This document shows positions 28,844-51,983 of a DNA stretch of 64,000 nt, one piece after another. The stretch covers positions 672,001-736,000 of the forward strand of contig CAVSPA010000005.1 in assembly GCA_963729715.1 (NCBI GenBank), written 5' to 3'. The position numbers and the translations under genes are program-made. Numbering within the stretch: the first letter of the stretch is position 1; every line of letters begins with the position of its first letter. The notes beneath the pieces were generated by a model that saw only the letters and a program-made list of their open reading frames with translations, was not told the DNA's origin and did no database searches. Source of the DNA: an uncultured delta proteobacterium. Lineage in GTDB: Bacteria; Desulfobacterota; Syntrophia; Syntrophales; UBA2185.

Positions 28844-29101
28844 TTTTCCCTCCTCGGTATTTTCGAATTATAGATAAAATCTAAGCCGGATAAAAAATTA
28901 CATCCATCATAAAATTCATAAAATCCAGTTTTGAAAAACCTGAATTTTACATAAGGGAATGGATGATAGGCGCGGTTTATTTGGCCTCTCTTTCTGCGAC
29001 AGCAATTCTTACCCATTGACACACCCACCCCCTTTCTTTTATGCTCCCTGTGTGACTCTTTTACGCAAGACTGACAACTCTTTTTGAACGCAACTACAGT
29101 T

Positions 29102-32100: not shown

Positions 32101-34516
32101 ACAGGTCTATCCGCCCCTCATGAAGCGAGGGCGAGATGTTAATTTGGGAAAATTGGAAGAAAGGCTCGACAATGATGACTGGTCGGTCCGCCAGGCCGCG
32201 GCCGTGGCCTTAGGCCGGATATGGTTCCACGACTATTACCATGGCAAGATGGCTTTGACAGATTTGGAAAAGAGACTCGAAGACCCAAGCTGGCCTGTCC
32301 GCCAGGCTGCATGCCAGACCCTGGGGCAGATATACCCGACGCTTGTCGGACGGGGAAAGAATGTAAACTTAGGGAAATTGGAAGACAGGTTAAGAGACGC
32401 AGACGTGGATAGATCCGTCTGCCAAGCTGCAGCGCAGGCCCTGGGCCGGATCTGGCCTCGCAGCTATCATCGAAAGAAGATTACCTTAAAAGAGTTGGAG
32501 GAAAGGCTGAAGGATGAAAACTGGTTTGTACACCAGGCTGCCGCACTCGCCCTAGTCCGTATACAACATGTCCTTGTCAAACGGGGGAATGACGCCGAAT
32601 TAGACAAACTGGATAAGAGATTGAAGGATAAGATCTGGTCGGTCCGCCAGGCGGCGGCACGGGCGTCAATAGAAATCTTTGCGGATATAATCTCGGGCAA
32701 GAAGAAGGAGTTTGGGAAGGCGCTTGCTTCCTTCAATGAGATGCTGAGTAAACCTATGGGAAGTGCCATAGCAGGCACACATGCGGGCCAGGTGCAGATC
32801 GGTGAAAAATCTTTAACAGTGGGAGATCTGCTCTTAGACAGGGCGGAACTGAGAGACGATATACCCGCCTGCGTAATGACGGAATCCGGCTATCACATGT
32901 TAGAGACGTTGTGCATGGGCTACCTCTTGAGACACTCCGTCCTGCTCCTGGGCCCTACGTCAACAGGGAAGAGCTTCTTGATCAAATGGTTCGCGAGTGT
33001 GTTGGGCTATGAGCACCTCTCATATTCCATCAACCCCTACACCTCCAAGTTTGAGATAATCGGCGGCATTAAACCAGACAAGGAAGGCAGATTTGTCTGG
33101 CAGGACGGCATTCTTCTGAATGCGGCGCGAGACGGCCTGTGGCTCACTCTCGAAGAGATAAACCTCGCGTCTTCCGAAGTGGTCGAGATAATGAACGACT
33201 ATCTCATTACGGGACGGGTATCCTACTCGGCAAACGGGGAGCAGAAAGAATTGTATCCCCATCCCACTTTCAGACTCTTTGCCACAGGGAACCCGGAAAG
33301 TTACAGCCAGAGGCAGAAACTCTCCGAGGTATTTCTTTCCAGGTTCAAAATACTCTATCAAAAAGAACTTTCGGAAGAGGAACTGACCCAGGTATTAAGT
33401 TCTTTATTCGAGATTACTTCCGCTGCGGCCCTTCCCATTGCGAGATTTCACACTACCCTGCAGAACCAGGCGGACAGCCGCATCATCGGCAAGACGGAAA
33501 AAGACCCGTATATATTTACCCTCAGGGACATAATAAGACTGGGGAGGAGGTTGGAGCCAGTCTTGGCGAACAGATCAGCCGACAAGGAATATTTCAAAAA
33601 GTTTTTCCTCGAGTTGTTCAGCGTTTATATAGGCAGATTGAGGGACAGCTCCGAAAGAGAGGCAGTGGTCAGTCTATTGGATGCATATTTTGGTTTCCGG
33701 GCCGAGGGCTTGGACCTGAAAGAAGTGCTCATATCCGCTTCTCTGGACATGGATTCCCTACTTGCAGACTTGACATCCTCAAAGGGAGATGAACTGATTC
33801 CCCGACATGACGCAGCGATTGTACCCACACCGACCCAGAGGATAACTCTCTATCTAATCCTCACGGCCCTGATAAATAACGAACCTCTTCTTGTGGCAGG
33901 AAATCCTGCCTCAGGAAAGACCACCCTCATCAGATATCTGGCCGGTCAAAAAGAGACGAACCTCTACTATGTAAACCTCTCCTCAGATACGGGCCTGGAA
34001 GAGCTTCTGGGCGGTTATATTCAAGACAAAAAGGGGAAATGGCATTACAGGAAGGGCCTACTGTTCATGGCCATGGAAAAAGGAAGCTGGCTCCTCATAG
34101 ACGAAGCGAATCTGTCCCCCCTGTCCGAGTATTTAAACACACTCCTTGACTTTGGCTACGTCATTGATGGAGAGGAAAATGTCTGTTACGCCCATCCTAA
34201 TTTCAGGATATTTCTCTCGATGAATCCTCCTTCCGTGCATCAATCGCGTAACCTGCTCTCACCTGCGTTGAGATCAAGATTTACAGAGGTGTGGGTTGAG
34301 GAGTTGACCAATTTAGGAGAACTCGCTGGTTTAGTAGATACCTGGAGCAAGGCTCACGAGGAGGCGCAAACATCTCACAAAAAAAGTAGGGGGAAAAAGA
34401 GGAAAGATGCGCGTGATGAAAAAATCTCCGATGATAAAAAACCGGCAAAAACCGATGCCAAGAAGGAGGATGAGGGATTTGCATCCGACAAGCGATTTAC
34501 CCATTATTCGACGTGA
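29102..34516 (+). CDS. giant HExxH-vWA-HEAT-tandem AAA+ (midasin/MoxR-like) protein
   Basis: HEAGH...FEDSRVD; MIDAS DESGS..T..TDG; 10 HEAT repeats; Walker A GPTSTGKS and GNPASGKT; HPxFRxFxxxNP; LSPALRSRF. Start ATG 29102 or TTG 29084. Confidence 0.85.
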   Translation: MQGKSETEEGRLRIKCIEELVRRRGLDEGEALVIDERLLALMQIISTGLGDDIHLKIAPGSNWRYNSETNEMVFPVGLLLSSSAEEVIAFCAHEAGHRQISRRSVRKAVFKTFSATESTRLLLTAFEDSRVDNWLTSVFAGIKHYLDIAYDEMLPRDLSRSSYVDYLKGEISKRASTCCHPYLLYPHLEYLLGMRYYWLYGRLPTQLMNPEVGAALARTHGDFAEIFNHYPPGRVSENENLRFAEETALMVRDKILPEYENLVLLAITKLAEAIKDGQLQVKDKKCAPEDLSPDEIEEAARKLLELKARELADKLSPKTEKRTGKTEEYRKETPEETAPRRAGGKSAGERTAPLPTETLRDLIKKQRRIDRDENTKIGEYEKVFRLISNLVQALSGVLENHFAKNKRPSFKGYFPSGQKPDLRRAMELSRKLSEGIPVQDRDLKVFLKRRLPTQRDHKIILALDESGSMDEPKRTSALAGLLIFMEALDHIGIDYGVIGFSDSPIMHKELGVKLDNAGRRVLFDEVSLCIPGGSTADADALQLATNILKDQPEDSSRWIIMVTDGEGNVNTTGKTFVELQKEALDQKIEVLGVGLGEEVTEVIRRYASGMQINAVEELPSVLSGILEEKLVTQDAYWDSFLTPRHEAHIEREDPDVSLPPDLSVLLASLYLYLKENIPAFNVRHLKRASELLGFLLNRGYPGKEAFGRSLKYAFVDTQEQSQRVKELILERIEDMRKVFPDITREDLPQEFHQASSRADVPVSAIPHDLASVLDILMKNSAHPRIEKALSLLKALISSSDTAFVSIPGMEAAFRVIDDELLKEIAIEEIEKKLEDKSWAVRQPAALALGRVYLALVKQGKDVDLSLLEEMLKDEDPSVCRAAAQALSRIWYHYHGKGKITLGALERRLGDENWAVRQAAARALGRIYPLLMEQGLNVDISKLEGGLWNKNWFVRQAEAEALGETYGALIRKGIEINLEGLEERLKDKNILTRQTAALALGQVYPPLMKRGRDVNLGKLEERLDNDDWSVRQAAAVALGRIWFHDYYHGKMALTDLEKRLEDPSWPVRQAACQTLGQIYPTLVGRGKNVNLGKLEDRLRDADVDRSVCQAAAQALGRIWPRSYHRKKITLKELEERLKDENWFVHQAAALALVRIQHVLVKRGNDAELDKLDKRLKDKIWSVRQAAARASIEIFADIISGKKKEFGKALASFNEMLSKPMGSAIAGTHAGQVQIGEKSLTVGDLLLDRAELRDDIPACVMTESGYHMLETLCMGYLLRHSVLLLGPTSTGKSFLIKWFASVLGYEHLSYSINPYTSKFEIIGGIKPDKEGRFVWQDGILLNAARDGLWLTLEEINLASSEVVEIMNDYLITGRVSYSANGEQKELYPHPTFRLFATGNPESYSQRQKLSEVFLSRFKILYQKELSEEELTQVLSSLFEITSAAALPIARFHTTLQNQADSRIIGKTEKDPYIFTLRDIIRLGRRLEPVLANRSADKEYFKKFFLELFSVYIGRLRDSSEREAVVSLLDAYFGFRAEGLDLKEVLISASLDMDSLLADLTSSKGDELIPRHDAAIVPTPTQRITLYLILTALINNEPLLVAGNPASGKTTLIRYLAGQKETNLYYVNLSSDTGLEELLGGYIQDKKGKWHYRKGLLFMAMEKGSWLLIDEANLSPLSEYLNTLLDFGYVIDGEENVCYAHPNFRIFLSMNPPSVHQSRNLLSPALRSRFTEVWVEELTNLGELAGLVDTWSKAHEEAQTSHKKSRGKKRKDARDEKISDDKKPAKTDAKKEDEGFASDKRFTHYST
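31586..32680 (+). repeat. ten ~38-aa HEAT-like coding repeats
   Basis: Consensus LExRLxDxxWxVRQAAAxALGRIY/W repeated ten times. Confidence 0.88.
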
Positions 34517-35280: not shown

Positions 35281-35381
35281 TGATGCAGTCATCCGGATAG
35301 ATATCTTTCCATTTGAAATAAAGGAGCATGAGGGTTAAATAGGAGCTGTTGGAGACATGGTTATGGACAGAGGATTGGACT

Positions 35382-35816
35382 ATGCCTGATTTCTCGACTT
35401 ACTTACGGCGGTTTCAAGCGGGCGAAAAGAATCTGAACCCTTATCTCGATTATTTTGAAATGACTCTCGTAGAAGTGCGTGAAGGATATGCGCGTTTCCG
35501 GATGCCTTTCCGCCCGGAATACCTGCAGGTGGGCGGCTTCCTGCAGGGGGGGCTTATCGTGGCCCTTGCAGATGAAGCCATTGCCCACGCCGCCATGACG
35601 GTCCTCCCGCCTGCTTCCGGAATTACGACCGTGGAATTGAAATGTAATTTCCTTGCCCCGGTAACAAAAGGTGAACTGATTGCAGAGGCAAGCATTTTCA
35701 AAAAAGGGCGTACACTGATTATCGGTGATTGTCTGGTGAAGGACGAAAATGGCAAGGACGTACTTCGCTGCACTGCGACGTTCTTGATGTTTCCTGATAA
35801 GAAGGACTTCGAATGA
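35382..35816 (+). CDS. PaaI family thioesterase
   Basis: GFLQGGLIVALADEA, TVELKCNFLAP. Confidence 0.85.
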   Translation: MPDFSTYLRRFQAGEKNLNPYLDYFEMTLVEVREGYARFRMPFRPEYLQVGGFLQGGLIVALADEAIAHAAMTVLPPASGITTVELKCNFLAPVTKGELIAEASIFKKGRTLIIGDCLVKDENGKDVLRCTATFLMFPDKKDFE

Positions 35817-36319
35817 CGAGCGATCCTGAGATCCATCCCTGTGAGGAAAGAGATATTGAAACTATCTGTGAAATTATTAACGCCGCGGCAGAGGCTTACA
35901 GAGGCGTCATTCCGGCGGATAGATGGAAGGAACCGTATATGTCGGAAGATGAACTCCGGCACGAGATCGACGAAGGAGTAAAATTCTGGTGTTATACAGA
36001 GAACGGAGAACTTCTCGGAGTCATGGGTATGCAGGACGTCATGGATGTAACATTGATGAGACATGCATACGTACGCACGGTCAGACGACGCCAGGGTATC
36101 GGCGGTAGGCTGTTGTCTCTACTCCGGAAGAAAACGTCCCGTCCGATCCTGATTGGTACCTGGGCGGCGGCAGCTTGGGCGGTTCGTTTCTATGAGGCGC
36201 ATGGCTTTTATATGGTCTCTCCGGAAGAAAAGGATCGTCTGCTGAAACGATACTGGTCAATACCGGAACGTCAGGTCGAAACATCAGTCGTTCTTGCGGA
36301 ACGCGGTCGTTCGCTATGA
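35813..36319 (+). CDS. GNAT family acetyltransferase
   Basis: RHAYV, RRQGIGGRLL, AVRFYEAHGF. Confidence 0.88.
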   Translation: MTSDPEIHPCEERDIETICEIINAAAEAYRGVIPADRWKEPYMSEDELRHEIDEGVKFWCYTENGELLGVMGMQDVMDVTLMRHAYVRTVRRRQGIGGRLLSLLRKKTSRPILIGTWAAAAWAVRFYEAHGFYMVSPEEKDRLLKRYWSIPERQVETSVVLAERGRSL

Positions 36320-36332
36320 GGGAGAAAAACAC

Positions 36333-36836
36333 TTGATACCTATCGTGTCCATAGTCGGTCGATCGAATACCGGGAAGACCACATTGATTGAAAAACTTAT
36401 ACCGGAGCTGAGGCGAAGGGGCTATCAGGTGGCTACGATCAAACACAACGTCCATGGCTTCGACATAGACCACGAGGGCAAAGACAGCTGGCGCCATAAA
36501 AAGGCGGGTGCACACCTTACGGTCATCGCATCACCACATAGCGTCGCTGTCATTGAGGATGTGGACAGGGACTTTGAATTGGCAGAACTGAGGGATCGCT
36601 ACATACGGGACGTCGACGTCATCCTTTCCGAAGGCTTTAAACGAAATCCGCATCCAAAAATTGAAGTGGTCCGATCGGAAATGAAGCACGAGCCCCTCTG
36701 CTCGCGAGAAGATAATCTTATGGCCATTGTGAGTGACAAGCCCGTACACAGAGGAACGCCCTGTCTAAATATCGATGACATCCGGGGTATCGCCGATCTC
36801 ATAGAAGATAAATTTCTGAAAGGGAAGACAGCGTAG
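36333..36836 (+). CDS. mobB: molybdopterin-guanine dinucleotide biosynthesis protein B
   Basis: GRSNTGKTT, VATIKH, GKDSWRH, EGFK; probable TTG start at 36333. Confidence 0.92.
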   Translation: MIPIVSIVGRSNTGKTTLIEKLIPELRRRGYQVATIKHNVHGFDIDHEGKDSWRHKKAGAHLTVIASPHSVAVIEDVDRDFELAELRDRYIRDVDVILSEGFKRNPHPKIEVVRSEMKHEPLCSREDNLMAIVSDKPVHRGTPCLNIDDIRGIADLIEDKFLKGKTA

Positions 36837-36839: not shown

Positions 36840-37496
36840 TCACGCGGTTGCGGCAAAGGCATAGGCTGCAAAGAGACCGTCATGACTGAGACTGAGATCA
36901 ATTGCCGCGGGCTCGCCACTTATACATAAGAATGGCGGTCCCAGACCATAGGGACTCTTCACCCGCCTGATTTCGATATTTTCCGGGGATTCATCATAAT
37001 GTGTTGAGAGGTGCAGCTTGAGGACTTTACGCACAAAGGCTGATTCGTAATCGGGCGAAGCCTGTGAACCAGGGCTGATGCGGGCAACGTGCCAGACGAG
37101 TGCATCAATCTCATCGGATGCTGACGTAGTTCCGATGCAATGGACATAGTCGGAAGTTATCAAAACCTTGATCTCTATCCTGCCATACGGCGTATCAACG
37201 AATCCTGTAAGGGTATCACTTCCAGAAGAAAGTCGGACTGATTCTTCCGCACAATTTAGACTCACTTCATATAAGCGGGGGACGGAAGTGGCGGAAGGGT
37301 CAAGCTTCTTGACAAGCTTGTACGCCGTTTCCTTGCCTGCCCAGAGCGCCCACAAGACGGCGTCCTGGCTCTCTGCGCGGGATATCAATTCTTTTTCACG
37401 GGGTGTGAAGACGCGGTTAATGAATCGCGTATCCCGACTCTTCCCCATATTGTGTGGATCGGTCAGATCCACAATATCGTTGCCGATGCGAATCAA
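36840..37496 (-). CDS. 4'-phosphopantetheinyl transferase
   Basis: IGNDIVD, RVFTPRE, WAGKETAYK, SLSHDG; probable TTG start 37496 overlapping the end of the acyltransferase. Confidence 0.85.
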   Translation of the reverse strand: MIRIGNDIVDLTDPHNMGKSRDTRFINRVFTPREKELISRAESQDAVLWALWAGKETAYKLVKKLDPSATSVPRLYEVSLNCAEESVRLSSGSDTLTGFVDTPYGRIEIKVLITSDYVHCIGTTSASDEIDALVWHVARISPGSQASPDYESAFVRKVLKLHLSTHYDESPENIEIRRVKSPYGLGPPFLCISGEPAAIDLSLSHDGLFAAYAFAATA

Positions 37497-38226
37497 AATA
37501 ACCTTTCTCCATTTGTGCCATATGTTTGATGATCTGCTCTGCATAGCGGCGCTGAGCCCTGAGTCCGTTTTCTTGTATCGGTTCGGGCTCAAAGACTTCT
37601 ACGTTCACCGCAAAACGCTCGCGAAATCTGGGAATGAAGCCGTAAGAATGCTGGCTGTCACCTCGCAGATAGATACACATTACCTTGCAGGTTTCAAAAT
37701 CCTTGATGAACCGGCCCACACCGTAGGAAAAACTCTCGGTATTAACGCGGCCTGTCCGGGAGCGCCCTCCTTCCGGAAAAATCAGCAATGGCTGTTTCCA
37801 TTCGAGAAGGGATGTGCATTTATCAAGGGTGTTTTTCATCTCTTCACGATTGCCGCCCCTGTTGATGGGGACGCACTTGGCGAGGTAACAAAGAACTGCC
37901 ATGATGATATTCCGCTGGAAATTGTTTCTCTCCGGCAAATTCCACGGCAGCTCACGGTAATGCAGTAAGTTACGCGTGAAGGAAAATGCCGCATATGTAA
38001 TGATTAGGGAATCGATCATCGTGAGATGATTCGCGCAGATGATCCACGGCCCTTCGTAGTTCCTGAAATGACGTGCGCATTCCTCTCTGATCTTCAGTAT
38101 ATTCCTTACCCTGTAGCCCATGAGCCAGATGACTGAAAAATAAAGAGGGGCGATAACAAAAATGGCAATCCGACCAAGCGTGTATTGAATCAGCAGAGGG
38201 CCTTGGAGCATCAACTTCTTCTTCAT
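37417..38226 (-). CDS. PlsC-family lysophospholipid acyltransferase
   Basis: NHLTMID (HX4D), PINR, FPEGGRS. Confidence 0.88.
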   Translation of the reverse strand: MKKKLMLQGPLLIQYTLGRIAIFVIAPLYFSVIWLMGYRVRNILKIREECARHFRNYEGPWIICANHLTMIDSLIITYAAFSFTRNLLHYRELPWNLPERNNFQRNIIMAVLCYLAKCVPINRGGNREEMKNTLDKCTSLLEWKQPLLIFPEGGRSRTGRVNTESFSYGVGRFIKDFETCKVMCIYLRGDSQHSYGFIPRFRERFAVNVEVFEPEPIQENGLRAQRRYAEQIIKHMAQMEKGYFDSHRQRYCGSDRSTQYGEESGYAIH

Positions 38227-38234
38227 GACTGACC

Positions 38235-38483
38235 TTATCCTAATTTGCTCTTGATGATAGCTACGGCATCTCCGACTGTTCCGATCTTGTCGGCCTCGTC
38301 ATCTTCGACGGTGATGCCGAATGTGTCTTCACACTTTATAATGACATCTACCAGCCTGGCGGAATTGACCTTCAGGTCGTTTAGAATGTGGGTATCCTTT
38401 GTCGCCTTATCCAGCAAGCTCGGGTCCTTTGTATATCCCCTGAGGATATCGATCATTTTGTTAAAGATTGTCTGTTCGTCCAT
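38235..38483 (-). CDS. acyl carrier protein
   Basis: 82 aa acidic protein; DLKVNSARLVD (Ppant Ser in NS context), EDTFGI, TVGDAV. Confidence 0.9.
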   Translation of the reverse strand: MDEQTIFNKMIDILRGYTKDPSLLDKATKDTHILNDLKVNSARLVDVIIKCEDTFGITVEDDEADKIGTVGDAVAIIKSKLG

Positions 38484-38486
38484 TTC

Positions 38487-39779
38487 TTAATAGCTCCTTT
38501 GATTATTATTCCATCTCTTAAAGATGAGACAGCTGTTAACATCGCCGAAACCGAAACCGGCTTTGGCGATAATATTTAATTCAGGAAAGTCCATGCACTT
38601 CTGTGGCACCTTATCTCCAAATTCAGCAATATCGGGGTGTATGTCTTCACAATTGACGGAAGGATGGAGGAACCCCTTGTATAATTGCAGTACTACGGCA
38701 ACGCTCTCTATGGCACCTGCTGCGCCTAAGCAATGCCCCACCATAGATTTTGTGGAATTGATATAGGGAAAATTAGCGGGGCCGCGTTCGAGGGCTGCCG
38801 ACCAGTTCTTCACTTCATAAGGGTCGGCAAAGGTTGCCGTTAAGTGGCCGTTGATTGCGTCTATATGAGCCGGCATAATACGTGCGTCGGATATGGCGGC
38901 CTTGATGCATCGTTTGACACCCTCGGGATTCGGCGCGGTTATGGAGCCGCCCATGCGATGCCCTCCGCAATTGACGGCGCCTCCGAGAACTTCAGCATAA
39001 ATCCTCGCTCCACGTTCCAAGGCGGATTCCAGATCTTCAAGCACCAGAATTCCAGCGCCCGAGCCGGGGACAAAACCACATGCTGTGGCGCTCATCGGCC
39101 GTGAAGCAGTCTCCGGGTAATCATTGAATTTCTTGCAGATGACGCGCATGGCCTCGAATCCGGCCCAGATAAAGGGCGATTGGCCTTCGGAACCACCGGC
39201 TAAAATCCTTTTTGCAAGACCGTTCCGTATTCTCCACATCCCTTCAACAATCGCTTCATTCCCCGTGCTGCAGGCAGATGAATTTGAAGTCACCTGGTTT
39301 CCGAGAGCCAAGATGCCCGCGATACTTGCGCTTGTGCCGCTATTCATGACCTGCTCTACTATCCGGCTTCCCATGCGGCGCACTTTCCCCCGGGAAACCA
39401 TGGGCACGAGAACGGTTGTAATTGTATCCATGCCGCCGATTCCGGAGCCGACGATCACGCCTGTATCCCAGTCCACAGTATCATCGTGAATGCCAGGCAT
39501 CTTGAAACCTGCGTCGGTCCATGCGTCTACGGCTGAAACAGCGGCGTATCCGATGTTTTCGTTCATCGACATCAGTGTATCTTCATTAAAATAACTCTTG
39601 CGGATATCCTCAAAGTCCTGGGGGGCAGCGCCCACCTGGCAGGAAAAGTTCAATTCCTTAAGTTCAGGAAAAAACCGGATGCCGGAGCGCCCTTTCCGCA
39701 GGGCATCTTCAAAATTAACCAAGCCATGGGCATTGGGGGCTGCTATCCCCATCCCTGTTATGACAACTCTTCTTTTCAA
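38487..39779 (-). CDS. beta-ketoacyl-ACP synthase (FabF/FabB family)
   Basis: RRVVITG; Cys in SACSTG; His in NGHLTAT and GHCLGAAG; FGFG. Confidence 0.92.
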   Translation of the reverse strand: MKRRVVITGMGIAAPNAHGLVNFEDALRKGRSGIRFFPELKELNFSCQVGAAPQDFEDIRKSYFNEDTLMSMNENIGYAAVSAVDAWTDAGFKMPGIHDDTVDWDTGVIVGSGIGGMDTITTVLVPMVSRGKVRRMGSRIVEQVMNSGTSASIAGILALGNQVTSNSSACSTGNEAIVEGMWRIRNGLAKRILAGGSEGQSPFIWAGFEAMRVICKKFNDYPETASRPMSATACGFVPGSGAGILVLEDLESALERGARIYAEVLGGAVNCGGHRMGGSITAPNPEGVKRCIKAAISDARIMPAHIDAINGHLTATFADPYEVKNWSAALERGPANFPYINSTKSMVGHCLGAAGAIESVAVVLQLYKGFLHPSVNCEDIHPDIAEFGDKVPQKCMDFPELNIIAKAGFGFGDVNSCLIFKRWNNNQRSY

Positions 39780-39804
39780 CTAATATAAACCTCCATGAAA
39801 AACA

Positions 39805-40284
39805 TTAAGCGCCCTGGGAAGGTACTCCCCTCCCCGCGAGGACACCGAAACTCACGGCCTCGCCATTTTCCCTTTCCATGGTAACCTTCATTTTAAGGCT
39901 TCCCATGCGGAAATAGACTTTGTGACCTTTAACGATCACGCGCTCACCGGGATGCACGACCCCCGTGAACTCCACCCCTTCGGCAAGGGTAAAAAGTGTA
40001 GTCAATTTTTTTGCATCCTCCACCGTTGTATACGTCTGCCTCATGTGAAGATAAAGGCCGAAGGCAACAACCCCCGTCTGTGCCATGGCTTCAATGAGAA
40101 TCACACCCGGAGTAATCGGTTTGCCTGGGAAGTGTCCCTTATAAAAATACTCATCCTCACGAAACCGGTACGTGCCGACGATGTGCTCATCATCGAGCTC
40201 CAGGATATCGTCGATAAAGCGAAACGGATGCTGTTGGGGAACACTATTTAAAATTCGTGTCATCGTCTCCCGATCAGCCGCCAT
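39805..40284 (-). CDS. FabZ-type 3-hydroxyacyl-ACP dehydratase
   Basis: PFRFID, GHFPGKPITPGVILIEAMAQ (His/Glu dyad). Confidence 0.88.
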   Translation of the reverse strand: MAADRETMTRILNSVPQQHPFRFIDDILELDDEHIVGTYRFREDEYFYKGHFPGKPITPGVILIEAMAQTGVVAFGLYLHMRQTYTTVEDAKKLTTLFTLAEGVEFTGVVHPGERVIVKGHKVYFRMGSLKMKVTMERENGEAVSFGVLAGRGVPSQGA

Positions 40285-41002
40285 AAAGCCCCCCGTTCAC
40301 ATGGACGACACTTCCCGATATATAGGATCCCCCTGTTGCGAGAAAGGCCACGACCTCAGCCACTTCCTCGGGGCGTCCTATACGGCCCAGAGTAATGTTC
40401 TCGAGAATCCTCTCTTGCACCTCTTCGGGGAGATTCTGTGTCATCTCTGTCTCGATGAATCCCGGGGCAACTGAATTGACGAGGATATTCCTCCCTGCCA
40501 ATTCTTGCGACAGGGACTTCGTAAAGGCGTCGAGAGCTGCCTTTTCCATGGTGTAGGGGATCTGACCCGCATTGCCGGTATGTCCCACGACACTGGATAT
40601 ATTGATGATGCGGCCTCCTCTCTGACGAAGCATGAAGAGGCGGATTATACGTTTGGTCAGGTACCATGTTCCGCGCATCAAGGCCCGCTGGGCATCGAAT
40701 TGCTCGATCTTCATGCTGACGATATCGGCGTTGAGAGATAGACCCGCATTGTTGACAAGGACATCCACGCGGCCCGCCTTCTCTTTTATCTTGTTGACCA
40801 GAAGTTCCACCTGATCGATATCCACCAGATCAGCCGGAAGAAGAAAGCCGTCACCTATCTCGGAGAGTAAAGCCCTTGCATGTTCCTCGCTGCTCCGGTA
40901 GTGAATGCCCACCAGAAATCCTTCTCCGGACAGCGCCCGGCAACACGCCGCGCCTATTCCTTTTCCACCGCCTGTTACGATGGCAACAGGTTTCTCGCTC
41001 AT
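40274..41002 (-). CDS. FabG-type 3-oxoacyl-ACP reductase
   Basis: TGGGKGIG, NNAG, NISS, YTMEK, APGFIETEM. Confidence 0.9.
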   Translation of the reverse strand: MSEKPVAIVTGGGKGIGAACCRALSGEGFLVGIHYRSSEEHARALLSEIGDGFLLPADLVDIDQVELLVNKIKEKAGRVDVLVNNAGLSLNADIVSMKIEQFDAQRALMRGTWYLTKRIIRLFMLRQRGGRIINISSVVGHTGNAGQIPYTMEKAALDAFTKSLSQELAGRNILVNSVAPGFIETEMTQNLPEEVQERILENITLGRIGRPEEVAEVVAFLATGGSYISGSVVHVNGGLYGG

Positions 41003-41595
41003 GAACCGCTCCTCATGATGCCGCCTATCGAGTTTACCGATCGTTTCGGATAGTCGGGATAAATGATCCCTTTGAAAATGCCGGTGCGGGCATCTTTGAT
41101 GTGGGCAATCAGTTCATTGTCAACAAAAACCTTTCCGTCTCCGATGGCAATGCTCGCCCCCGAGTCCTTCAACTGAGCGAAGCGCCTCACTTCAATATCG
41201 TAGCGGACGCATTTGTTGTAGGGACGAATCTGGCCGCTGAAAGTAATCTCACCGCAACCGAGGGCCCTGCCGGCGCCCAAGGCGCCGCGCCAGACACAGT
41301 AAAAACCGAGAAGCTGCCATACTGCATCAACGCAGAGGCAGCCCGGCTGAACCGGGTCCCCGGGCATATGGCACTGAAAATACCAGGCATCAAGTCTGAT
41401 GTCCTGCTCTGCAACAATCGAACCCTGTCTGCCGACAGAACTAAACGACAGCACCCGATCTACCATGAGAAAGGGAGGCGCCGGCAGTCGCGCCTCAAAA
41501 TTTACAGGCGGGTCATCTACCAGGGTCCCGTAGGAAAAAGCGATGAGCTCCTCCAGCCCGAAACTCTGGCATTCTCTGAAATCCGCATACTTCAT
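40999..41595 (-). CDS. fabA: 3-hydroxyacyl-ACP dehydratase/isomerase (FabA type)
   Basis: LPAPPFLMVDR, WYFQCHMPGDPVQPGCLCVD (His/Asp dyad), GRALGCG. Confidence 0.88.
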   Translation of the reverse strand: MKYADFRECQSFGLEELIAFSYGTLVDDPPVNFEARLPAPPFLMVDRVLSFSSVGRQGSIVAEQDIRLDAWYFQCHMPGDPVQPGCLCVDAVWQLLGFYCVWRGALGAGRALGCGEITFSGQIRPYNKCVRYDIEVRRFAQLKDSGASIAIGDGKVFVDNELIAHIKDARTGIFKGIIYPDYPKRSVNSIGGIMRSGS

Positions 41596-41597
41596 GA

Positions 41598-42590
41598 TTA
41601 TTCCTCTACCTGTAAGACCATATGAACCCAGGACAACCCCGCCCCGACAATGGCAATGGCCACATGATCTCCCGGACGCAGGTCATTCCAGCGTTGGCTG
41701 AGAACAGCCGGCGCTCCGGAACAGCCGGTGTTGCCAAAAAATTCCACATTGTGCCAATGATTGTTTTCCGTAATTTGAGAACGCTCGCAGACAGTTTGCA
41801 GCATACCCATATTGGCCTGATGACCGATAAAGATGAAGCGATTGCCATTGAGAGCATAGGTCTGCTGCAGCATGCGAATAGCATCTGTTGTCTTGCGAAT
41901 GGCAAAGCCCTGCACGGAGTTCCCGTCCTGCTGGAAGTAACCCATACGGGGTATTCCCACCTTGTCCCAATCTGACGGTTTCGTTTCATAAGCGCAGGCC
42001 GTAAAGAATTTGTGCGACGGCACCGTGGCAGATACAATGGCTGCGGAACTGCCGTCACCGAACAGCACCGCAGATTTCCGATCGGCATAGTCCACGCAGC
42101 GAGTGAGATTTTCCGGATTGACCAGGAGTATAAAGGGCGGCAGTGCCTCGGGTCTCATGAGGCTGACAAAGTGCACCTGCGTACCAAAGCTGGTGCAGGC
42201 GGAATTCACGTCGAAGCAGGGTACGTCGATTCCGAGTTCCGCGGCTACGGTCGAGGCTTCCGCAGGGGAAACATTATCCGCTGCCGAGCTTCCGGAGATG
42301 ACAAGCCCGATGTCTTCCTTCTTGAGACCGGCGCGCTCAATGGCCATCTGTGCGGCAGAGGCTCCGGTTTGCGCGTTATTGTAAAGGCCTGCTGCAAAAG
42401 CTTCTCTCGGGTCTCTGTTTCTTGTTTCCTTTATATAGTCCAAAGGGAGCACGGTCCGGCGTGTATGAATGCCGACCCTCTCCATGATCCATGCCTCATT
42501 TGTTCCGATATCCATCTCTTCCAAAAATCTATTGGTAATAACATTCTCCGGGTGGAAATGGCCCATACCGTGAAGATAGAGTGCACTCAT
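41598..42590 (-). CDS. ketoacyl-ACP synthase III (FabH family)
   Basis: Cys SACTSF, LFGDG, His HQAN, Asn GNTG. Confidence 0.9.
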   Translation of the reverse strand: MSALYLHGMGHFHPENVITNRFLEEMDIGTNEAWIMERVGIHTRRTVLPLDYIKETRNRDPREAFAAGLYNNAQTGASAAQMAIERAGLKKEDIGLVISGSSAADNVSPAEASTVAAELGIDVPCFDVNSACTSFGTQVHFVSLMRPEALPPFILLVNPENLTRCVDYADRKSAVLFGDGSSAAIVSATVPSHKFFTACAYETKPSDWDKVGIPRMGYFQQDGNSVQGFAIRKTTDAIRMLQQTYALNGNRFIFIGHQANMGMLQTVCERSQITENNHWHNVEFFGNTGCSGAPAVLSQRWNDLRPGDHVAIAIVGAGLSWVHMVLQVEE

Positions 42591-43786
42591 ACAAGCTCCC
42601 TCCCGATAATCATGTTCTGGACCTCCCGCACACCTTCGTAAATGTCGATGATGTGCGCATCTCTCGCCAACTTCGAAATCTCATATTCTGACATGAAACC
42701 ATATCCGCCGTGGAGATGCAGGCCTTCGTTGGCGCAGAACAAAGCCGCCTCCGCGGCTGTATTCTTCGCGAGGGAGGCATACATGCCCCTGTCGTCCGCT
42801 TTTTCCTGAACCTTGAAAGCAGCTTTCATGAGCGCCATATCCGCGAGCTCGACTTTTTTCCACATTTGCACCAATGTCTCTCTTGCAACCGACAAATCAC
42901 AGATCCTTTGTCCAAATTGCTTGCGCTCTCTTGTGTATTCCAGAGTGACATCCAATGCCCGTTTGGCGAGACCCACACCTATTGCCGCAACCATGGGACG
43001 CGCATAGTCAAGAACGTCGATGACATACTTGAAACCCTGTCTCCGATCACCGATTATCTGATTGTCATTGATGACTACGTCTTCAAAGGTGACAGCGGCC
43101 GTATTTGATAAACGCTGCCCCAGCTTGTCTTCCGGTTTGCCAATGATGATCTTTCCCCCCGTGGGGAGAGTCATCTCCTTGCCCACTGCGAGATGCGGAT
43201 CTGAATTGGAGGGAAGCACCGGTGGGGCGGGAACTATTAAGCAGGCCATGAAGTTACCCGTCGGCTTCCCTACTTTACAAAAAACGGTAAATTGTGAGGC
43301 GTAGGACGCATTGGTGATAAAGCACTTGCTGCCATTGAGGACATACGTTCCATCCGGGCTCTTCTTGATGAACGTCGTCATGGCGGAGTTGTCAGAACCG
43401 GCGCACGGTTCCGTCAGACAGAAAGAAGCCATTATGGGATTCTCGACAAAGGGGCTTAAGAAAAGGGCCTTCTGTTCGTCCGTACCATGCTGGGCAATAA
43501 CCGTGTTTGCCAGATCATTACACATTGCCGACGTGGAAATCCCCGTATCTCCGTAGGACAGTTCTTTGATGATCATGGCCGTAGAAACGGGATCAACCTC
43601 AAATCCCTTAACCGATTCAGGGATGCTCAGATTCAAAATTCCGAGGCCCCAGGCCTTCTGGATAATTTCCCAGGGGAAAATATGCTTCTTTTCCAGCTCC
43701 ATAACCTGCGGTATGATTCCATACCTGACAAATCTCTTAACTGTATCCATATACATTTGCTGACTGCTGGTAAGATTAAAATCCAT
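42587..43786 (-). CDS. acyl-CoA/acyl-ACP dehydrogenase heading the lipid cluster
   Basis: FCLTEPCAGSD, KCFITN, KLGQR, RKQFG, HGGYGF, IYEG; start MDFNL at 43786 behind GAAGGA. Confidence 0.9.
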   Translation of the reverse strand: MDFNLTSSQQMYMDTVKRFVRYGIIPQVMELEKKHIFPWEIIQKAWGLGILNLSIPESVKGFEVDPVSTAMIIKELSYGDTGISTSAMCNDLANTVIAQHGTDEQKALFLSPFVENPIMASFCLTEPCAGSDNSAMTTFIKKSPDGTYVLNGSKCFITNASYASQFTVFCKVGKPTGNFMACLIVPAPPVLPSNSDPHLAVGKEMTLPTGGKIIIGKPEDKLGQRLSNTAAVTFEDVVINDNQIIGDRRQGFKYVIDVLDYARPMVAAIGVGLAKRALDVTLEYTRERKQFGQRICDLSVARETLVQMWKKVELADMALMKAAFKVQEKADDRGMYASLAKNTAAEAALFCANEGLHLHGGYGFMSEYEISKLARDAHIIDIYEGVREVQNMIIGRELV

Positions 43787-43833: not shown

Positions 43834-43849
43834 AGCATTATCCGTGCCA
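43834..43849 (-). promoter_or_regulatory. sigma-54 promoter of the lipid cluster
   Basis: TGGCACGGATAATGCT = GG-N10-GC, ending about 48 nt upstream of the ACAD start. Confidence 0.72.
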
Positions 43850-44176
43850 GAAGGGTGATTGACACCCCTCTGTGGACTATAATCATCCATATTTATTGAC
43901 TAATTTATGATTAGTTTGATTTTTCGGATGGCTCTCAGAAGGCCGTATTCCGGGCTTATAACGCGTAATTCTCTTTGCAGTGTGTATACGGCTATGCATC
44001 ATATGATAATGCAAGAGTAGAGACCATCCCTACTGATCAAACTGCCCGGGAGCGTTCTTCAAAGAGTAAAAAATTTATCTTGACAAGGCAAAAATATATG
44101 GAGTATCTTCGCAGCATCGAGGAACGGGTTGATTTACGGACGATAGAAACTTTTTTCACAAAGGAGGTAAGAATCG

Positions 44177-44404
44177 ATGAGGAAACTGCTTGCAATCATT
44201 TTATCAATTCTTTTCGTAGTGGCGGTTACGTTTACATTAATGGGCTGCCCATCAGCACCAGAAAAGAAACCGCCTGAGCCTGCGAAGAAAGAAGCGGCGG
44301 CTCCGGCCCCGGCAGCACCAGGAGCGCCAGCACCGGCACCAGGAGCCCCTGCGGCGCCACCGACGCCACCGGCACCGGCACCAGCGGCCCCTGCGCATAA
44401 GTAG
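44177..44404 (+). CDS. small Pro/Ala-rich putative lipoprotein
   Basis: RBS AAGGAGGT; signal peptide with lipobox-like LMGC; mature part PAPAAPGAP repeats. Confidence 0.75.
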   Translation: MRKLLAIILSILFVVAVTFTLMGCPSAPEKKPPEPAKKEAAAPAPAAPGAPAPAPGAPAAPPTPPAPAPAAPAHK

Positions 44405-44607: not shown

Positions 44608-46131
44608 ATGGAAACCTTTACATTAGCAACGGTCAGCCTGATAATTTCTCTTACCCTGATTATAAATAAAAAAAAAGTTCCTGCCCATCTGTCTTTTGCT
44701 TCCCTCTGTCTCGCGATCTTTTTCTATAAAAGCGGCGCCTTTTTCGATGAGATTTTTACGGGGCATAACTGGAGAATTATAGAATACGCCGGATTGATAG
44801 CCATCCCTCCCTGCTCGGTGAAATTCGCCCGCTCTCTCCTGCGTGAACAGACCTTCTTGAGAAAAAGAGATGTCATATCCTTCACAATTTTCAGTTTTCT
44901 CCTTGCCATTACTGTTTTCTCCCCCCTTTACAACTGGCCCTACCTGAAGACTGCTTTCTTAATATATGCCGGCGCTGCACTTTCTGTCTGTTATATCGCC
45001 CTTATCCTTTATATTAGAAATAGGCCCGTAGGTGTGGAAAGAACCCGGATGGTGTATCTGGCTTGCGCCAGTGGGGCAACCGCCATCCTCAGTGTGTTTG
45101 ATATATTCTATTATTATGGATATTCTTTTCCTCCCATATCCAACCTCTTTATTGCAATCCTGCTTTATTTTGTCCTGATTCTTATTACACATCCCCGTCT
45201 GCCGGAGTTGCATGAACTCATGGGAAGGGCCCTTGTACTCTCGATCATCACTCTTTTTGCGGCTATTGCATTTACCCTAATCGTGAGATTGTTCGGAAAG
45301 GGGGAAACGCCTCCCTTCACCCATATTTTGCTGGCGTCACTAATAATTGTGATCGCCATCGAACCTTTCAAACTTGTCCTAAAGATGATGTTCAGTTATT
45401 TTTACCCGGAAGGTAAGGATGTATTCACATCCCTTTATGCCTTCGATGAAATGCTCGAGAAAGAGAAGTCCCTTCTCCTCGAGGAAATGGCGCCCGTTTT
45501 GGCTCATGAAATAAGAAACCCTCTCGGTTCCATCAAAGGCGCCGCCCAGTACCTCAGATCGGAATCGAGCGCCGGCGACCACCAGAGGCTTCTCGACGTT
45601 ATAATAGAAGAAGTAGACCGGTTGAATAGCGTCGTATCTCAGTTTCTCAATTATGCCAAACCCTATACCCTTAAGGTTAAGATGCAGGACGTAAATCAGA
45701 TTATTGAGAAGGCCATATCTGTCATCAAAGCAAGCCCGCGTTCAGATAATATCGTCATTGAAAAAGAGCTTCGTCCTGATTTGCCCCTCATCGAGGTCGA
45801 TGCGGAACAGCTGGTTCAGGTAATTCTGAATATAGCATTCAACGCCATAGAGGCAATGCAGGAGGGCGGGACCATCATTTTCCGGACGTCCAAGATCAGC
45901 AGCGGCGATGGCGAGGCGATAGGCATTTCCATCAGGGATACGGGAAAAGGAATCAAAAAAGAGGAAATGAAAAATATTTTCAAACCATTTTTCACAACCA
46001 AGGAACGGGGAGTCGGTCTTGGCCTTGCCATCAGCCAGAAGATCATCAAGAATCATGGCGGTCATATCAAGGTTAAATCCATTCCTCTTCAGGGGAGCAT
46101 ATTTTATATCAGGCTGGGTGTCACGCCTTGA
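44608..46131 (+). CDS. sensor histidine kinase with multi-TM N-terminal domain
   Basis: Polytopic N-terminus; AHEIRNPL, NAIEA, DTGKG, PFFTTK, GLGL. Confidence 0.92.
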   Translation: METFTLATVSLIISLTLIINKKKVPAHLSFASLCLAIFFYKSGAFFDEIFTGHNWRIIEYAGLIAIPPCSVKFARSLLREQTFLRKRDVISFTIFSFLLAITVFSPLYNWPYLKTAFLIYAGAALSVCYIALILYIRNRPVGVERTRMVYLACASGATAILSVFDIFYYYGYSFPPISNLFIAILLYFVLILITHPRLPELHELMGRALVLSIITLFAAIAFTLIVRLFGKGETPPFTHILLASLIIVIAIEPFKLVLKMMFSYFYPEGKDVFTSLYAFDEMLEKEKSLLLEEMAPVLAHEIRNPLGSIKGAAQYLRSESSAGDHQRLLDVIIEEVDRLNSVVSQFLNYAKPYTLKVKMQDVNQIIEKAISVIKASPRSDNIVIEKELRPDLPLIEVDAEQLVQVILNIAFNAIEAMQEGGTIIFRTSKISSGDGEAIGISIRDTGKGIKKEEMKNIFKPFFTTKERGVGLGLAISQKIIKNHGGHIKVKSIPLQGSIFYIRLGVTP

Positions 46132-46170: not shown

Positions 46171-47541
46171 ATGGCAGAGAAAATATTGGTCGTTGATGAT
46201 GAGCTCAATATGCGGCTGGTCTTGAAGGCCCTGCTGAATAAGGAAGGCTATGACGTGGCCACGGCATCGGATGGCAACGAGGCCTTGAAAATCCTCAAGG
46301 GCGGCGGCGTGCAAGTCGTCGTGACTGATCTGAAGATGCCGAAGCTCGACGGCGTGGGTCTCTTGGAGCGGGTGATTCGCGACTATCCGTCCACGCCGGT
46401 TATTATTGTCACCGCTCACGGGACTATTGCCACGGCAGTGGACGCTTTGAAGAAGGGCGCCTTCGATTATATCACCAAACCTTTTGAACGTGATGAATTG
46501 AAAAATATAATCCATAAGGCCATCAGGACCCGAAGGCTCAACGAGGAAGAACTGCTCGTCAGCCCCGATGATATTGACAGGCAGGGGATAGTCGGTTCCA
46601 GTGAGCCGATGCTGAAAATATATGATACGATCAAAAGAGTGGCGCCGACGCCGACAACTGTGCTTATATCGGGGGAAACGGGCACAGGCAAGGATCTCAT
46701 AGCATATGCAATTCACAGAAGCAGCCCGCGCCGGGATAATCCGTTCGTCAAGATTAACTGTGCCGCCATTGCGGAAAATCTCATAGAGAGTGAACTGTTC
46801 GGATACGAAAAAGGGGCTTTCACGGGAGCAGTGTCCACGAAGCCCGGGAGGTTTGAGCTGGCGGATAAGGGGACTCTGTTTCTCGACGAAGTAGGAGAAA
46901 TTCCCCGGGACATGCAGGTGAAGCTCCTTCGGGTAATCCAGGATTATGAATTCGAGCGTGTCGGCGGGCTGCGTACGATTAAGGTGGATGTGAGATTAAT
47001 TGCGGCGACGAACAGGAATCTCCTCCAGGACGTGAAAGACGGCAGGTTCAGGGAAGATCTTTACTACAGGCTCAATGTCTTTCCCACGCACCTGCCTCCC
47101 TTGCGGGAAAGAAGAGAGGACATCCTTCCCCTGACAGATTATTTTATCGAGAAATTCAACGGCAAGTTAAGCCGAGAGGTTAAGCATATCGATGCGCGTG
47201 TGCAAGATGTGCTTGTCAATTATGACTGGCCCGGCAATATCAGAGAGCTGGAAAATTTCATAGAGCGGATTGTTCTCTTGTCTGGCGGAGACGCGATTAC
47301 CTTCGAAGATATTCCTCCCGAATGGAAGTCGGCCGCCGAAGCAATCTCCGTCTCCCAGCGTGGCGGCCAGAAAAAACCCTTCAAAGATTTCGTGAAGGGC
47401 CACATGGAAGAAGTGGAGAAACAGAGCATAATACAGTGCCTCGAGGAGGTGGGCGGCAATGTCACAAAAGCGGCTCAGCGTCTCGGTCTCAGCAGAAAGG
47501 GTCTGCAACTGAAGATGATAAAATATAATCTTCGCAAGTAG
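46171..47541 (+). CDS. NtrC-family sigma-54-dependent response regulator
   Basis: REC domain (VVDDE, TDLKMP); GETGTGK, GAFTGA, WPGNIREL; C-terminal Fis-type HTH. Confidence 0.95.
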   Translation: MAEKILVVDDELNMRLVLKALLNKEGYDVATASDGNEALKILKGGGVQVVVTDLKMPKLDGVGLLERVIRDYPSTPVIIVTAHGTIATAVDALKKGAFDYITKPFERDELKNIIHKAIRTRRLNEEELLVSPDDIDRQGIVGSSEPMLKIYDTIKRVAPTPTTVLISGETGTGKDLIAYAIHRSSPRRDNPFVKINCAAIAENLIESELFGYEKGAFTGAVSTKPGRFELADKGTLFLDEVGEIPRDMQVKLLRVIQDYEFERVGGLRTIKVDVRLIAATNRNLLQDVKDGRFREDLYYRLNVFPTHLPPLRERREDILPLTDYFIEKFNGKLSREVKHIDARVQDVLVNYDWPGNIRELENFIERIVLLSGGDAITFEDIPPEWKSAAEAISVSQRGGQKKPFKDFVKGHMEEVEKQSIIQCLEEVGGNVTKAAQRLGLSRKGLQLKMIKYNLRK

Positions 47542-51163: not shown

Positions 51164-51176
51164 GAGATTGACATCC

Positions 51177-51983
51177 CTACAATTTAACAAGTTCAACGTG
51201 GGATAGCGTCCGCCCGAGGAACCCTTCGCCGATCGTCTGGAAGTGATAGGGCACGTCGGTGACAAAGAAGCGGTACTTCGGATGTGTGTGCTTATGATTT
51301 CCAAGATGCTTGTCGGTGAGGAGATGCGCCGTTATATCCGCCATAGCTTCGGCGGAGTCCACGAGGCGAATATCAGGCCCCGCGATGTCCTGCAGAAGAG
51401 GCTTGATCAATGGATAGTGGGTACACCCCAGGACAAGAGTATCGATATGCTCCGCAAGAACCGGCCGCAAGTACTCCTGGGCGGTAAGCCGGGTGACGGG
51501 ATGATTCCACCATCCCTCTTCGACCAGCGGTACAAACAGGGGGCAGGCTTGGGAGAAGACCCGGATGCTAGGGTCATGCTGGTGAATGGCACGGGCATAA
51601 GCGTTGCTGTTTATGGTTGCCGGCGTGCCGATGACGCCGATATACTTGCTGTGGGTTTCGGCTGCTGCTCTGCGGGCTCCTGCATCTATGACGTCGAGGA
51701 CGGAAACAGGAGAAATGTCTTTGACTGCCTGATAGGCGACCGCGGCCATGGTGTTACATGCGACAATGAGCAGTTTCACATCTTTTTGCAGCAGGAAATT
51801 TGTGATCTCCATTGCGTATTGCGTGATCGTTTCCGGTGATTTCACGCCGTATGGCACCCGCGCGGTGTCACCGAAGTAGACGATGTTCTCGAAGGGCAGG
51901 CGTTCCATGAGGGCGCGAACGACCGTCAATCCTCCGATACCGGAATCAAACACTCCGATGGGATGGTTGGCAATTGACTGCAT
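51177..51983 (-). CDS. murI: glutamate racemase
   Basis: FDSGIGGLTV, PYG, ACNT, LGCTHYP. Confidence 0.96.
   Translation of the reverse strand: MQSIANHPIGVFDSGIGGLTVVRALMERLPFENIVYFGDTARVPYGVKSPETITQYAMEITNFLLQKDVKLLIVACNTMAAVAYQAVKDISPVSVLDVIDAGARRAAAETHSKYIGVIGTPATINSNAYARAIHQHDPSIRVFSQACPLFVPLVEEGWWNHPVTRLTAQEYLRPVLAEHIDTLVLGCTHYPLIKPLLQDIAGPDIRLVDSAEAMADITAHLLTDKHLGNHKHTHPKYRFFVTDVPYHFQTIGEGFLGRTLSHVELVKL

Follow-up and report, generated by a model that had tools for sequence, protein, structure and literature searches.

In canonical type II fatty-acid synthesis (FAS) of the E. coli type, plsX-fabH-fabD-fabG-acpP-fabF stand together and fabZ, fabA, fabB and fabI are encoded elsewhere. Here we describe a nine-gene operon, called the cassette below, in a 64,000-nucleotide stretch of DNA (the window) from an uncultured delta proteobacterium of the order Syntrophales (contig CAVSPA010000005.1, positions 672,001 to 736,000). 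Its ketosynthase III (KSIII), elongating beta-ketoacyl-ACP synthase (KS), ketoreductase (KR), dehydratases and acyl carrier protein (ACP) belong to the same families as the canonical enzymes and have the same catalytic motifs, and FabD is available, acting in trans. The cassette differs in having an N-S motif instead of D-S-L in its ACP, its own Sfp-type 4'-phosphopantetheinyl transferase (PPTase) and PlsC-fold acyltransferase (AT), a flavoprotein of the acyl-CoA dehydrogenase family (ACAD) where the enoyl reductase is expected, and a sigma-54 element in place of the usual housekeeping control. The rhizobial cluster acpXL-fabZXL-fabF2XL-fabF1XL-lpxXL resembles it in combining a private ACP, a dedicated KS and dehydratase, and a terminal acyltransferase that loads a lipid. 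Unlike the cassette, that cluster uses an LpxL-family acyltransferase acting on lipid A, is not known to include KSIII, FabA, ACAD or PPTase, and is truly accessory to a full FAS. Reductive ACAD systems that work with electron-transfer flavoprotein (ETF), such as butyryl-CoA dehydrogenase-EtfAB and CarC (5ol2, 6fah), share the ACAD fold and reduce an enoyl thioester; the cassette ACAD matches them at 160-190 bits. Those enzymes act on catabolic CoA thioesters and are encoded beside etfAB, whereas the cassette has no etf gene nearby and its ACAD is predicted to act on an ACP-bound substrate. The fabI-fabN-fabO operon of Enterococcus faecalis (Dong and Cronan 2022, PMC9671860) places an enoyl reductase gene beside those for a KAS I-like synthase and a dehydratase/isomerase. 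As described there, its reductase is FabI, while ACP, PPTase, acyltransferase and KSIII are not part of it, and the main fab operon that it supplements is complete. Compared with that description, the cassette has an ACAD in the reductase slot and carries the only FabA/FabZ-type dehydratases of its genome.

The operon is likely the main fatty-acid synthase of the cell and not an accessory one, because it holds the only FabH-, FabA- and FabZ-type genes of the genome; it lies behind a sigma-54-type motif. The 3.76 Mb assembly is 100% complete by marker genes. Throughout, a gene reported as not found is so relative to the profiles used, and the compared genomes include metagenome-assembled genomes (MAGs). 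With the FabH-type model (TIGR00747) the cassette KSIII scores 140 bits and the next match in the genome 37 bits. With the FabA/FabZ family (PF07977), the two cassette genes are joined only by a 25.6-bit fragment in a biotin operon. FabD (PF00698) is encoded by a single gene (G000:C5:524.7k, G000 being the window's own genome), a singleton 188 kb from the cassette on the same contig. PlsX (PF02504) was not found in the genome by a profile to which the control genomes respond. When the cassette KSIII, FabA, FabZ-like, AT and PPTase proteins were searched against their own genome by tblastn, each returned only itself.

In many bacteria plsX, fabH, fabD and fabG usually lie between rpmF and acpP. 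At the canonical locus of this genome, yceD-rpmF-acpP-fabF (G000:C7:318.4-320.9k; L008 7471-9853), all four are missing and rpmF and acpP are about 100 nt apart. An IS110-family transposase gene lies about 3 kb upstream of this locus. The AcpP encoded there has the canonical DSL motif, and the FabF beside it is canonical (641 bits, over the cut-off); the other FabF-family proteins are the cassette KS and a KS within the biotin operon. A lone FabG (303 bits, over 273) and a separate AcpS of 127 aa, besides the cassette PPTase, are encoded elsewhere. So are a PlsB-like protein, a PlsC and an LplT-Aas-like fusion, which makes the cassette AT an extra enzyme. LpxC is also present, so 3-hydroxyacyl-ACP is needed.

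The initial annotation had proposed a self-contained accessory pathway, inducible, making a special acyl chain on a private ACP and loading it on a membrane lipid. The compact operon with its private ACP, PPTase and AT stands, and induction is plausible. The pathway is not self-contained: the gene for FabD lies elsewhere, and the cluster has no enoyl reductase of a classical type. Nor does it look accessory, as the only FabH-, FabA- and FabZ-type genes are here, FabD is of the cassette lineage and no PlsX was found. A separate housekeeping fab locus was looked for, and the canonical locus proved to be reduced to yceD-rpmF-acpP-fabF. That the cluster might be the only FAS of the genome, which the annotation had named as the outcome that would speak against it, is largely what the whole-genome profile searches found.

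The biotin operon lies outside the window (G000:C5:319.5-328.8k; L009 3490-12779) and contains bioB, birA, bioA ... bioF and bioD, with a FabZ-like fragment, a short-chain dehydrogenase/reductase (SDR), an ACP, a nitroreductase and a KS inserted. Its layout is presumably similar to that of Desulfovibrio-type operons in which the pimeloyl moiety is made. Genes for EtfB and EtfA follow about 2.5 kb downstream (L009 15252-17044), past a gene for an AMP-binding enzyme.

Conservation of the cassette runs through the order. The nine-gene order is kept in all six relatives that were fetched, which come from the window's own genus and five other families. A scan of the genome collection with an AT alignment found relatives of the AT in 341 species genomes. 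The best 80 of these 341 belong without exception to Syntrophales, Syntrophaceae, Smithellaceae or unclassified "delta proteobacterium" MAGs, peat and fen being the source of the closest; counts for each gene in these 80 loci, among loci with room for it, are given in Table 1. In a sample of 401 genomes of the phylum, the AT occurs in 11/13 other genomes of the order and in 5/387 outside it. FabD, absent from the window's cluster, lies directly upstream of ACAD in 39/80 loci. In five further Syntrophales genomes (96-100% complete), the single PF00698 FabD is 6-8 kb from the cassette AT on the same strand in every case, and thus inside the cassette. The FabD of the window's genome is 55-63% identical to 38 such cassette-linked FabDs.

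The dependence on cassette genes is also seen across 30 relatives. The FabA and FabZ-like genes are found as a pair about 1.2 kb apart in 26/30, and another FabZ-level match occurs in only one of the 30 (G001, 93.5 bits; 93% complete, 6% contaminated). The pair is missing in G025, G026, G028 and G029, two of which are 85-86% complete. G025 and G028 (96-98% complete) have no FabA/FabZ-family match above 36 bits, and G028 has a cassette-type KSIII. The cassette-type KSIII is the only FabH-like gene (E<=1e-20) in 19/30 relatives; eight have an extra FabH-like gene (270-435 bits), which exceeds the cut-off in two, including a bin with 9% contamination, and three have no FabH-like gene. We rejected the possibility of a horizontally acquired island, given this order-wide conservation and the GC content of the cluster (0.50-0.53), which matches the rest of the window.

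Outside Syntrophales the cassette has a different setting. Four loci from outside the order read FabD-SDR-KSIII-FabA-FabG-FabZ-KS-ACP-AT-PPTase (L125), FabD-SDR-FabG-FabZ-KS-ACP-AT-PPTase (L124), SDR-(FabG remnant/FabZ)-KS-ACP-AT-PPTase (L126) and SDR-KSIII-FabA-FabZ-KS-ACP-AT-PPTase (L127). The best NCBIfam family for their SDR is FabL, at 106-121 bits against a cut-off of 328, with weak matches to the FabV catalytic region; no orthologue of it was found in the window's genome or in the 80 Syntrophales loci. All five outside genomes with a cassette also encode a canonical FabH over the cut-off (318-391 bits), and four of the five have a FabZ-level match (100-125 bits) outside the cassette. 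At the canonical FabH loci of three out-of-order genomes, FabD, ACP and FabF were not found alongside. The FabD of the window's genome shares 55-57% identity with the cassette-linked FabDs of G263 and G324 and only 38% with a second FabD of G324, and it has no match at E<=1e-30 in three outside genomes whose cassettes lack FabD. The simplest reading is that some Desulfobacterota have the cassette as an addition to a canonical FAS, and that in Syntrophales, where canonical fabH, fabD, fabZ and plsX were not found, these steps are supplied by the cassette lineage.

Among the steps of bacterial FAS, enoyl-ACP reduction varies most, and its enzyme is a drug target, with FabI, FabK, FabL and FabV as the known classes. 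Neither FabD nor a reductase of the FabI, FabK, FabL or FabV type was found in the nine-gene cluster with Pfam. The first gene encodes not a synthase but an ACAD-family flavoprotein with all three ACAD domains. Its closest solved structure is a medium-chain acyl-CoA dehydrogenase (MCAD; 236 bits), followed by butyryl-CoA dehydrogenases and the caffeyl-CoA reductase CarC, and its catalytic Glu384, within IYEGV, is invariant in 31/31 aligned sequences. A quick maximum-likelihood tree groups 16 cassette ACADs in a single clade (100% SH-aLRT) on a long stem, apart from 25 paralogues of the genome. The gene order in Syntrophales loci of the L063 type is FabD-ACAD-KSIII-FabA-FabG-FabZ-KS-ACP-AT-PPTase, and in L125 the FabL-like SDR fills exactly the slot of the ACAD. 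The SDR is in 0/80 Syntrophales loci and the ACAD in 0/4 outside loci. With FabD in place, the fourth elongation step has no candidate in the operon other than the ACAD. Because it sits in the slot of the FabL-like SDR and is the only such candidate, we predict from its position that the ACAD is the enoyl-ACP reductase of the cassette.

To our knowledge, enoyl-ACP reduction is not known for the acyl-CoA-dehydrogenase family, and a literature search without most subscription journals found no publication that deals with this operon or with an enoyl-ACP reductase of the ACAD type. Elsewhere in the genome, FabI was the best family for none of eight SDRs outside the two FAS-like operons, and a FabV search (PF12241) gave no match, with the control genomes silent as well. 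The ACAD could instead be a dehydrogenase, converting saturated acyl-ACP or acyl-CoA to the trans-2-enoyl form, either to feed FabA and KS or to link degradation to synthesis, with a FabK-like NMO protein as the enoyl-ACP reductase. ACADs are normally oxidative, the nearest structures are MCADs and the catalytic Glu is intact; FabK-like proteins are encoded in 27/30 relatives; and Helicobacter FabX is a flavoenzyme that runs backwards in unsaturated fatty-acid synthesis. However, the ACAD is retained in cassettes without FabA, as the counts in Table 1 indicate, and it stands exactly where the outside relatives have the FabL-like SDR. Three of the 30 relatives (G003, G013, G016) carry the cassette and gave no FabK-like match. 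Trans-2-enoyl-ACP also arises in every cycle, so a dehydrogenase adds nothing obvious. We regard the dehydrogenase role as distinctly unlikely.

If the ACAD is the predicted reductase, it is tempting to speculate further. The whole order may have dropped the textbook fabH, fabD, fabZ and fabI and placed all FAS on a sigma-54-controlled cassette whose ACAD-family enoyl-ACP reductase would be a new class, maybe fed by ETF or ferredoxin and recovering energy. This is possible, and we put it forward tentatively, as something we doubt more than we believe.

Several observations count against the operon as the main synthase with the ACAD as its reductase. The genome is a bin in 19 contigs with an estimated contamination of 6.5%. 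The statement that the cassette holds the only dehydratases covers the FabA/FabZ family alone, with MaoC- and Had-type enzymes outside the search. Three FabK-like NMO proteins of the genome (229-269 bits against a cut-off of 453) are possible true enoyl reductases, and that cut-off is strict, being passed by one of six responding control genomes. No etf gene is present in any of the 90 fetched cassette loci. AcpP, FabF, FabG, AcpS, the PlsB-like protein and PlsC have been retained, so that the private ACP, PPTase and AT still have the look of an output line of their own. The cassette ACP also has a less acidic helix II than AcpP. Finally, a sigma-54 promoter and a dedicated two-component system are unusual for a housekeeping FAS and fit a conditional pathway better.

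Alternatively, the operon could be an inducible accessory pathway in which a special acyl chain, perhaps one with a particular cis double bond, is built on the private ACP for a membrane lipid. Bulk fatty acids would then come from AcpP and FabF with borrowed cassette enzymes, or from acyl-CoA (by reversed beta-oxidation or uptake) delivered to PlsB and PlsC. PlsB and PlsC can use acyl-CoA, as is established in E. coli, and the 27 further ACAD paralogues and four EtfAB pairs of the genome suggest a rich acyl-CoA metabolism. The odd ACP motif is invariant, the AT is extra beside PlsB-like and PlsC enzymes, the sigma-54 element comes with a sensor pair, and outside the order the cassette accompanies a canonical FabH (5/5) and FabZ (4/5), which makes it an add-on there. 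On the other hand, ACP-dependent synthesis, such as that of lipid A with LpxC present, still requires the cassette dehydratases, KSIII and the FabD lineage, so the cassette is not dispensable, and its conservation is order-wide rather than patchy. We therefore consider a purely accessory role unlikely and favor the operon as the main synthase.

Table 1. Features of the cassette and its control region in the window. Junctions are with the next gene downstream; loci are those among the best 80 of 341 that carry the gene, over those with room for it.
Feature	Position	Strand	Description	Junction	Loci
Conserved dyad block	43963..43997	-	candidate activator binding site, from 14-region alignment		
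Sigma-54-type -24/-12 element	43834..43849	-	TGGCACGGATAATGCT; GG-N10-GC spacing, 48 nt upstream of ACAD ATG		
ACAD	42587..43786	-	MCAD-like acyl-CoA-dehydrogenase-family flavoprotein, 399 aa; PF02771, PF02770, PF00441	4-nt overlap	54/55
KSIII	41598..42590	-	FabH-like, 330 aa; PF08545/PF08541; Cys132/His257/Asn287 in conserved motifs	2-nt gap	51/58
FabA	40999..41595	-	FabA-type 3-hydroxyacyl-ACP dehydratase, 198 aa; His76/Asp90	4-nt overlap	26/64
FabG	40274..41002	-	FabG-type 3-oxoacyl-ACP reductase (SDR), 242 aa; TGGGKGIG, Ser137, Tyr150-x3-Lys154	11-nt overlap	63/66
FabZ-like	39805..40284	-	hotdog dehydratase, 159 aa; His51/Glu65; PF07977 62 bits	25-nt gap	66/68
KS	38487..39779	-	elongating beta-ketoacyl-ACP synthase, 430 aa; Cys170/His312/His349	3-nt gap	69/69
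ACP	38235..38483	-	private ACP, 82 aa; DLKVNSARLVD (Asn40-Ser41) where the genome's AcpP has DLGADSLD	8-nt gap	75/75
AT	37417..38226	-	PlsC-fold acyltransferase, 269 aa; HX4D His67..Asp72 (NHLTMID), FPEGGRS; PF01553 54.5 bits	overlap	75/75
PPTase	36840..37592 (maximal ORF)	-	Sfp-type 4'-phosphopantetheinyl transferase; PF01648 41 bits, residues 35-95		74/74
Histidine kinase	44608..46131	+	~7 hydrophobic segments in residues 1-264, then HisKA + HATPase_c		
NtrC-type response regulator	46171..47541	+	receiver, sigma-54 activator AAA+ domain, Fis-type helix-turn-helix		

The open reading frame (ORF) list and a reading of the window give nine ORFs, all on the minus strand between 36840 and 43786. 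Pfam and NCBIfam assign them, from 5′ to 3′, to ACAD, KSIII, FabA, FabG, FabZ-like, KS, ACP, AT and PPTase. Much of what the initial annotation had said about this layout agrees with our reading: nine co-oriented, overlapping or abutting genes; intact catalytic residues, including the FabA His/Asp and the FabZ-type His/Glu; a FabA accompanied by an elongating KS; and an ACP, a PPTase and an AT of its own. The AT is distinct from the PlsB-like and PlsC genes of the genome. Two gene starts can be refined. ACAD starts at ATG 43786 and not at GTG 43831 of the longer ORF, because the promoter-like element occupies 43834-43849. The PPTase probably starts near 37499 rather than 37592; its conserved part begins at about 37499, overlapping the 3′ end of the AT gene.

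The catalytic motifs of the cassette enzymes could all be located by alignment and motif reading. Every component misses its NCBIfam equivalog cut-offs, except FabA with one of two models, and the cassette enzymes are thus divergent members of their families. KSIII falls below the FabH equivalogs. FabA passes NF003509 (195 bits against 124) and misses TIGR01749 (157 against 238), and from its sequence it is possibly also a trans-2 to cis-3 isomerase. FabG reaches 240 bits with TIGR01830 (cut-off 298), and the FabZ-like protein 72-79 bits with FabZ equivalogs, under their cut-offs. The active-site motifs of FabA and the FabZ-like protein are kept in 7/7 aligned sequences, as is the Cys-His-His triad of the KS. 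The KS had been described as FabB-like, which is not demonstrable: it is under the cut-offs of both the FabB model NF005935 (250.5 bits against 630) and the FabF model TIGR03150 (296 against 494), and lies at about equal distance from FabF-type (~190 bits) and FabB-type (~175 bits) structures in the PDB. By tblastn it is 34.5% identical to the canonical FabF of the genome.

The atypical N-S motif of the ACP, which the initial annotation had singled out, is conserved: DLKVNSARLVD is invariant in 31/31 aligned orthologues, and the motif is kept in 4/4 out-of-order cassettes as well. The PPTase has the motifs GNDIVD, KETAYK and SLSHDG, and its orthologues are 205-280 aa long, compared with 127 aa for AcpS. 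The AT has one N-terminal hydrophobic helix and lies outside the 1-acylglycerol-3-phosphate acyltransferase subfamily (TIGR00530, 32.9 bits against 103; the separate PlsC of the genome scores 120.5). A search of its sequence against the PDB gave zero matches. Its AlphaFold2 model (mean pLDDT 78.4) has Foldseek matches to GPAT1, the squash (plant) GPAT, PatA, LpxM and Thermotoga PlsC (5kym), with E-values of 3e-6 to 1e-4 and TM-scores of 0.35-0.52. In Protein Atlas it falls in generic "acyltransferase family protein" clusters of Thermodesulfobacteriota only. Its fold and motifs show a predicted lipid acyltransferase that would depend on acyl-ACP or acyl-CoA.

Scores under the housekeeping cut-offs, a private ACP and PPTase, and weak matches to cispentacin and flexirubin models could also point to a type II polyketide-like secondary-metabolite cluster (for an aryl polyene, dialkylresorcinol or polyene lipid), whose product would not be a fatty acid. 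Against this, the operon encodes a full reducing set (KR, two dehydratases and a reductase candidate) and no chain-length factor (CLF), cyclase, ammonia-lyase, glycosyltransferase, thioesterase or exporter, and it is conserved across the order as the only source of FabH, FabZ and FabD. We consider this reading highly improbable. The more specific candidates of an aryl-polyene, Pfa or ladderane cluster, which the initial annotation had also set aside, were rejected, since their hallmark genes (ammonia-lyase, CLF pair, glycosyltransferase and LolA/MMPL export; multidomain PfaA-C; a radical-SAM set) are absent from the nine genes and the flanking genes scanned.

The control region of the operon is conserved. 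We scanned 55 loci with upstream sequence for sigma-54-like elements scoring at least 10 of 12 consensus positions, and found one upstream of the first cassette gene (ACAD or FabD) in 30/55; among 1600 windows drawn at random from these loci, only 15 reach that score. These elements lie 21-168 nt, mostly 37-67 nt, upstream of the first gene. In an alignment of 14 upstream regions the element is invariant, and about 150 nt further upstream lies the conserved dyad block. The dyad reads GCGTAG-N23/24-CTACGC in relatives; the copy in the window is imperfect (GCATAG...TTACGC).

Three genes diverge from the operon: a small lipoprotein-like gene, a histidine kinase and an NtrC-type sigma-54 activator. 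The kinase has no large external domain, and its match to 7TMR-DISM_7TM is weak and not significant (E 0.069). A kinase homologue is found upstream on the opposite strand in 23/80 related loci, many of which have no upstream sequence. The NtrC-type regulator is adjacent in three of six fetched relatives, and other sigma-54 activators lie beside two out-of-order cassettes. The divergent kinase is likely the sensor for the operon and the regulator likely its activator, and as a pair they may control the operon and sense the state of the membrane. Inducible control, as the initial annotation had suggested, is plausible given the conserved element and this pair nearby.

The lipoprotein-like ORF (75 aa, 44177-44404, plus strand) has the cassette promoter on one side and the kinase gene on the other, and a hairpin with a T-run comes after it. 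It encodes a signal peptide, an LMGC lipobox and a Pro/Ala-rich tail, and no Pfam family matched it. Its 5′ end and a TTGACA-containing block upstream of it are conserved in 14/14 aligned relatives. Its product might be an accessory to the sensor kinase.

At the other end, the 3′ end of the operon is met by convergent genes (window 35349-36836, plus strand) that encode a 4HBT-type thioesterase, a GNAT acetyltransferase and MobB, with the MobB stop 3 nt from the PPTase stop. These neighbors are kept within the same genus. As members of the system they were set aside as probably unrelated, MobB adjoining the cassette in just 13/80 loci. Further away in the window are a 551-aa ORF (49649-51304, minus strand) with two stretches matched to the ThyX (Thy1) family, about twice the usual ThyX length, which may be a tandem or fused ThyX, and an 1810-aa protein with vWA, HEAT and tandem AAA+ domains (midasin-like) at 29084-34516 on the plus strand.

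With the operon as the main synthase, its proposed mechanism is as follows. The Sfp-type PPTase would activate the N-S-motif ACP. Malonate would be loaded by the single FabD, whose gene lies elsewhere in this genus and within the cassette in many relatives. KSIII would start chains, and KS, FabG and the FabZ-like dehydratase would run the cycle, with the MCAD-like flavoprotein reducing trans-2-enoyl-ACP in place of FabI, FabL, FabK or FabV. FabA and KS would branch off cis-unsaturated chains. The PlsC-fold AT would then move chains from the private ACP to a lyso-glycerolipid. The products of acpP, fabF, the lone fabG and acpS would need to borrow the cassette KSIII, dehydratases and FabD to make any AcpP-bound chains, as for lipid A and lipoate. 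The seven-transmembrane kinase and the NtrC-type activator would tune expression, possibly to the state of the membrane.

Annotation pipelines and cluster miners are likely to tag this operon as an "accessory" or "secondary-metabolite" FAS. As we read it, the operon may be an example of the replacement of a core pathway: the cassette is an add-on in other Desulfobacterota, and in Syntrophales it provides the only KSIII, FabA/FabZ and FabD lineage. Syntrophales are key degraders of fatty acids and aromatics in methanogenic peat, sediments and digesters. An enoyl-ACP reductase of the ACAD family, if true, would be a new class, and in syntrophs short of energy it would tie lipid synthesis to the flow of electrons through flavin and ETF. 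Should it draw on ETF or ferredoxin, an organism at the thermodynamic limit might in this way regain energy that is otherwise lost in enoyl reduction, a very exergonic step.

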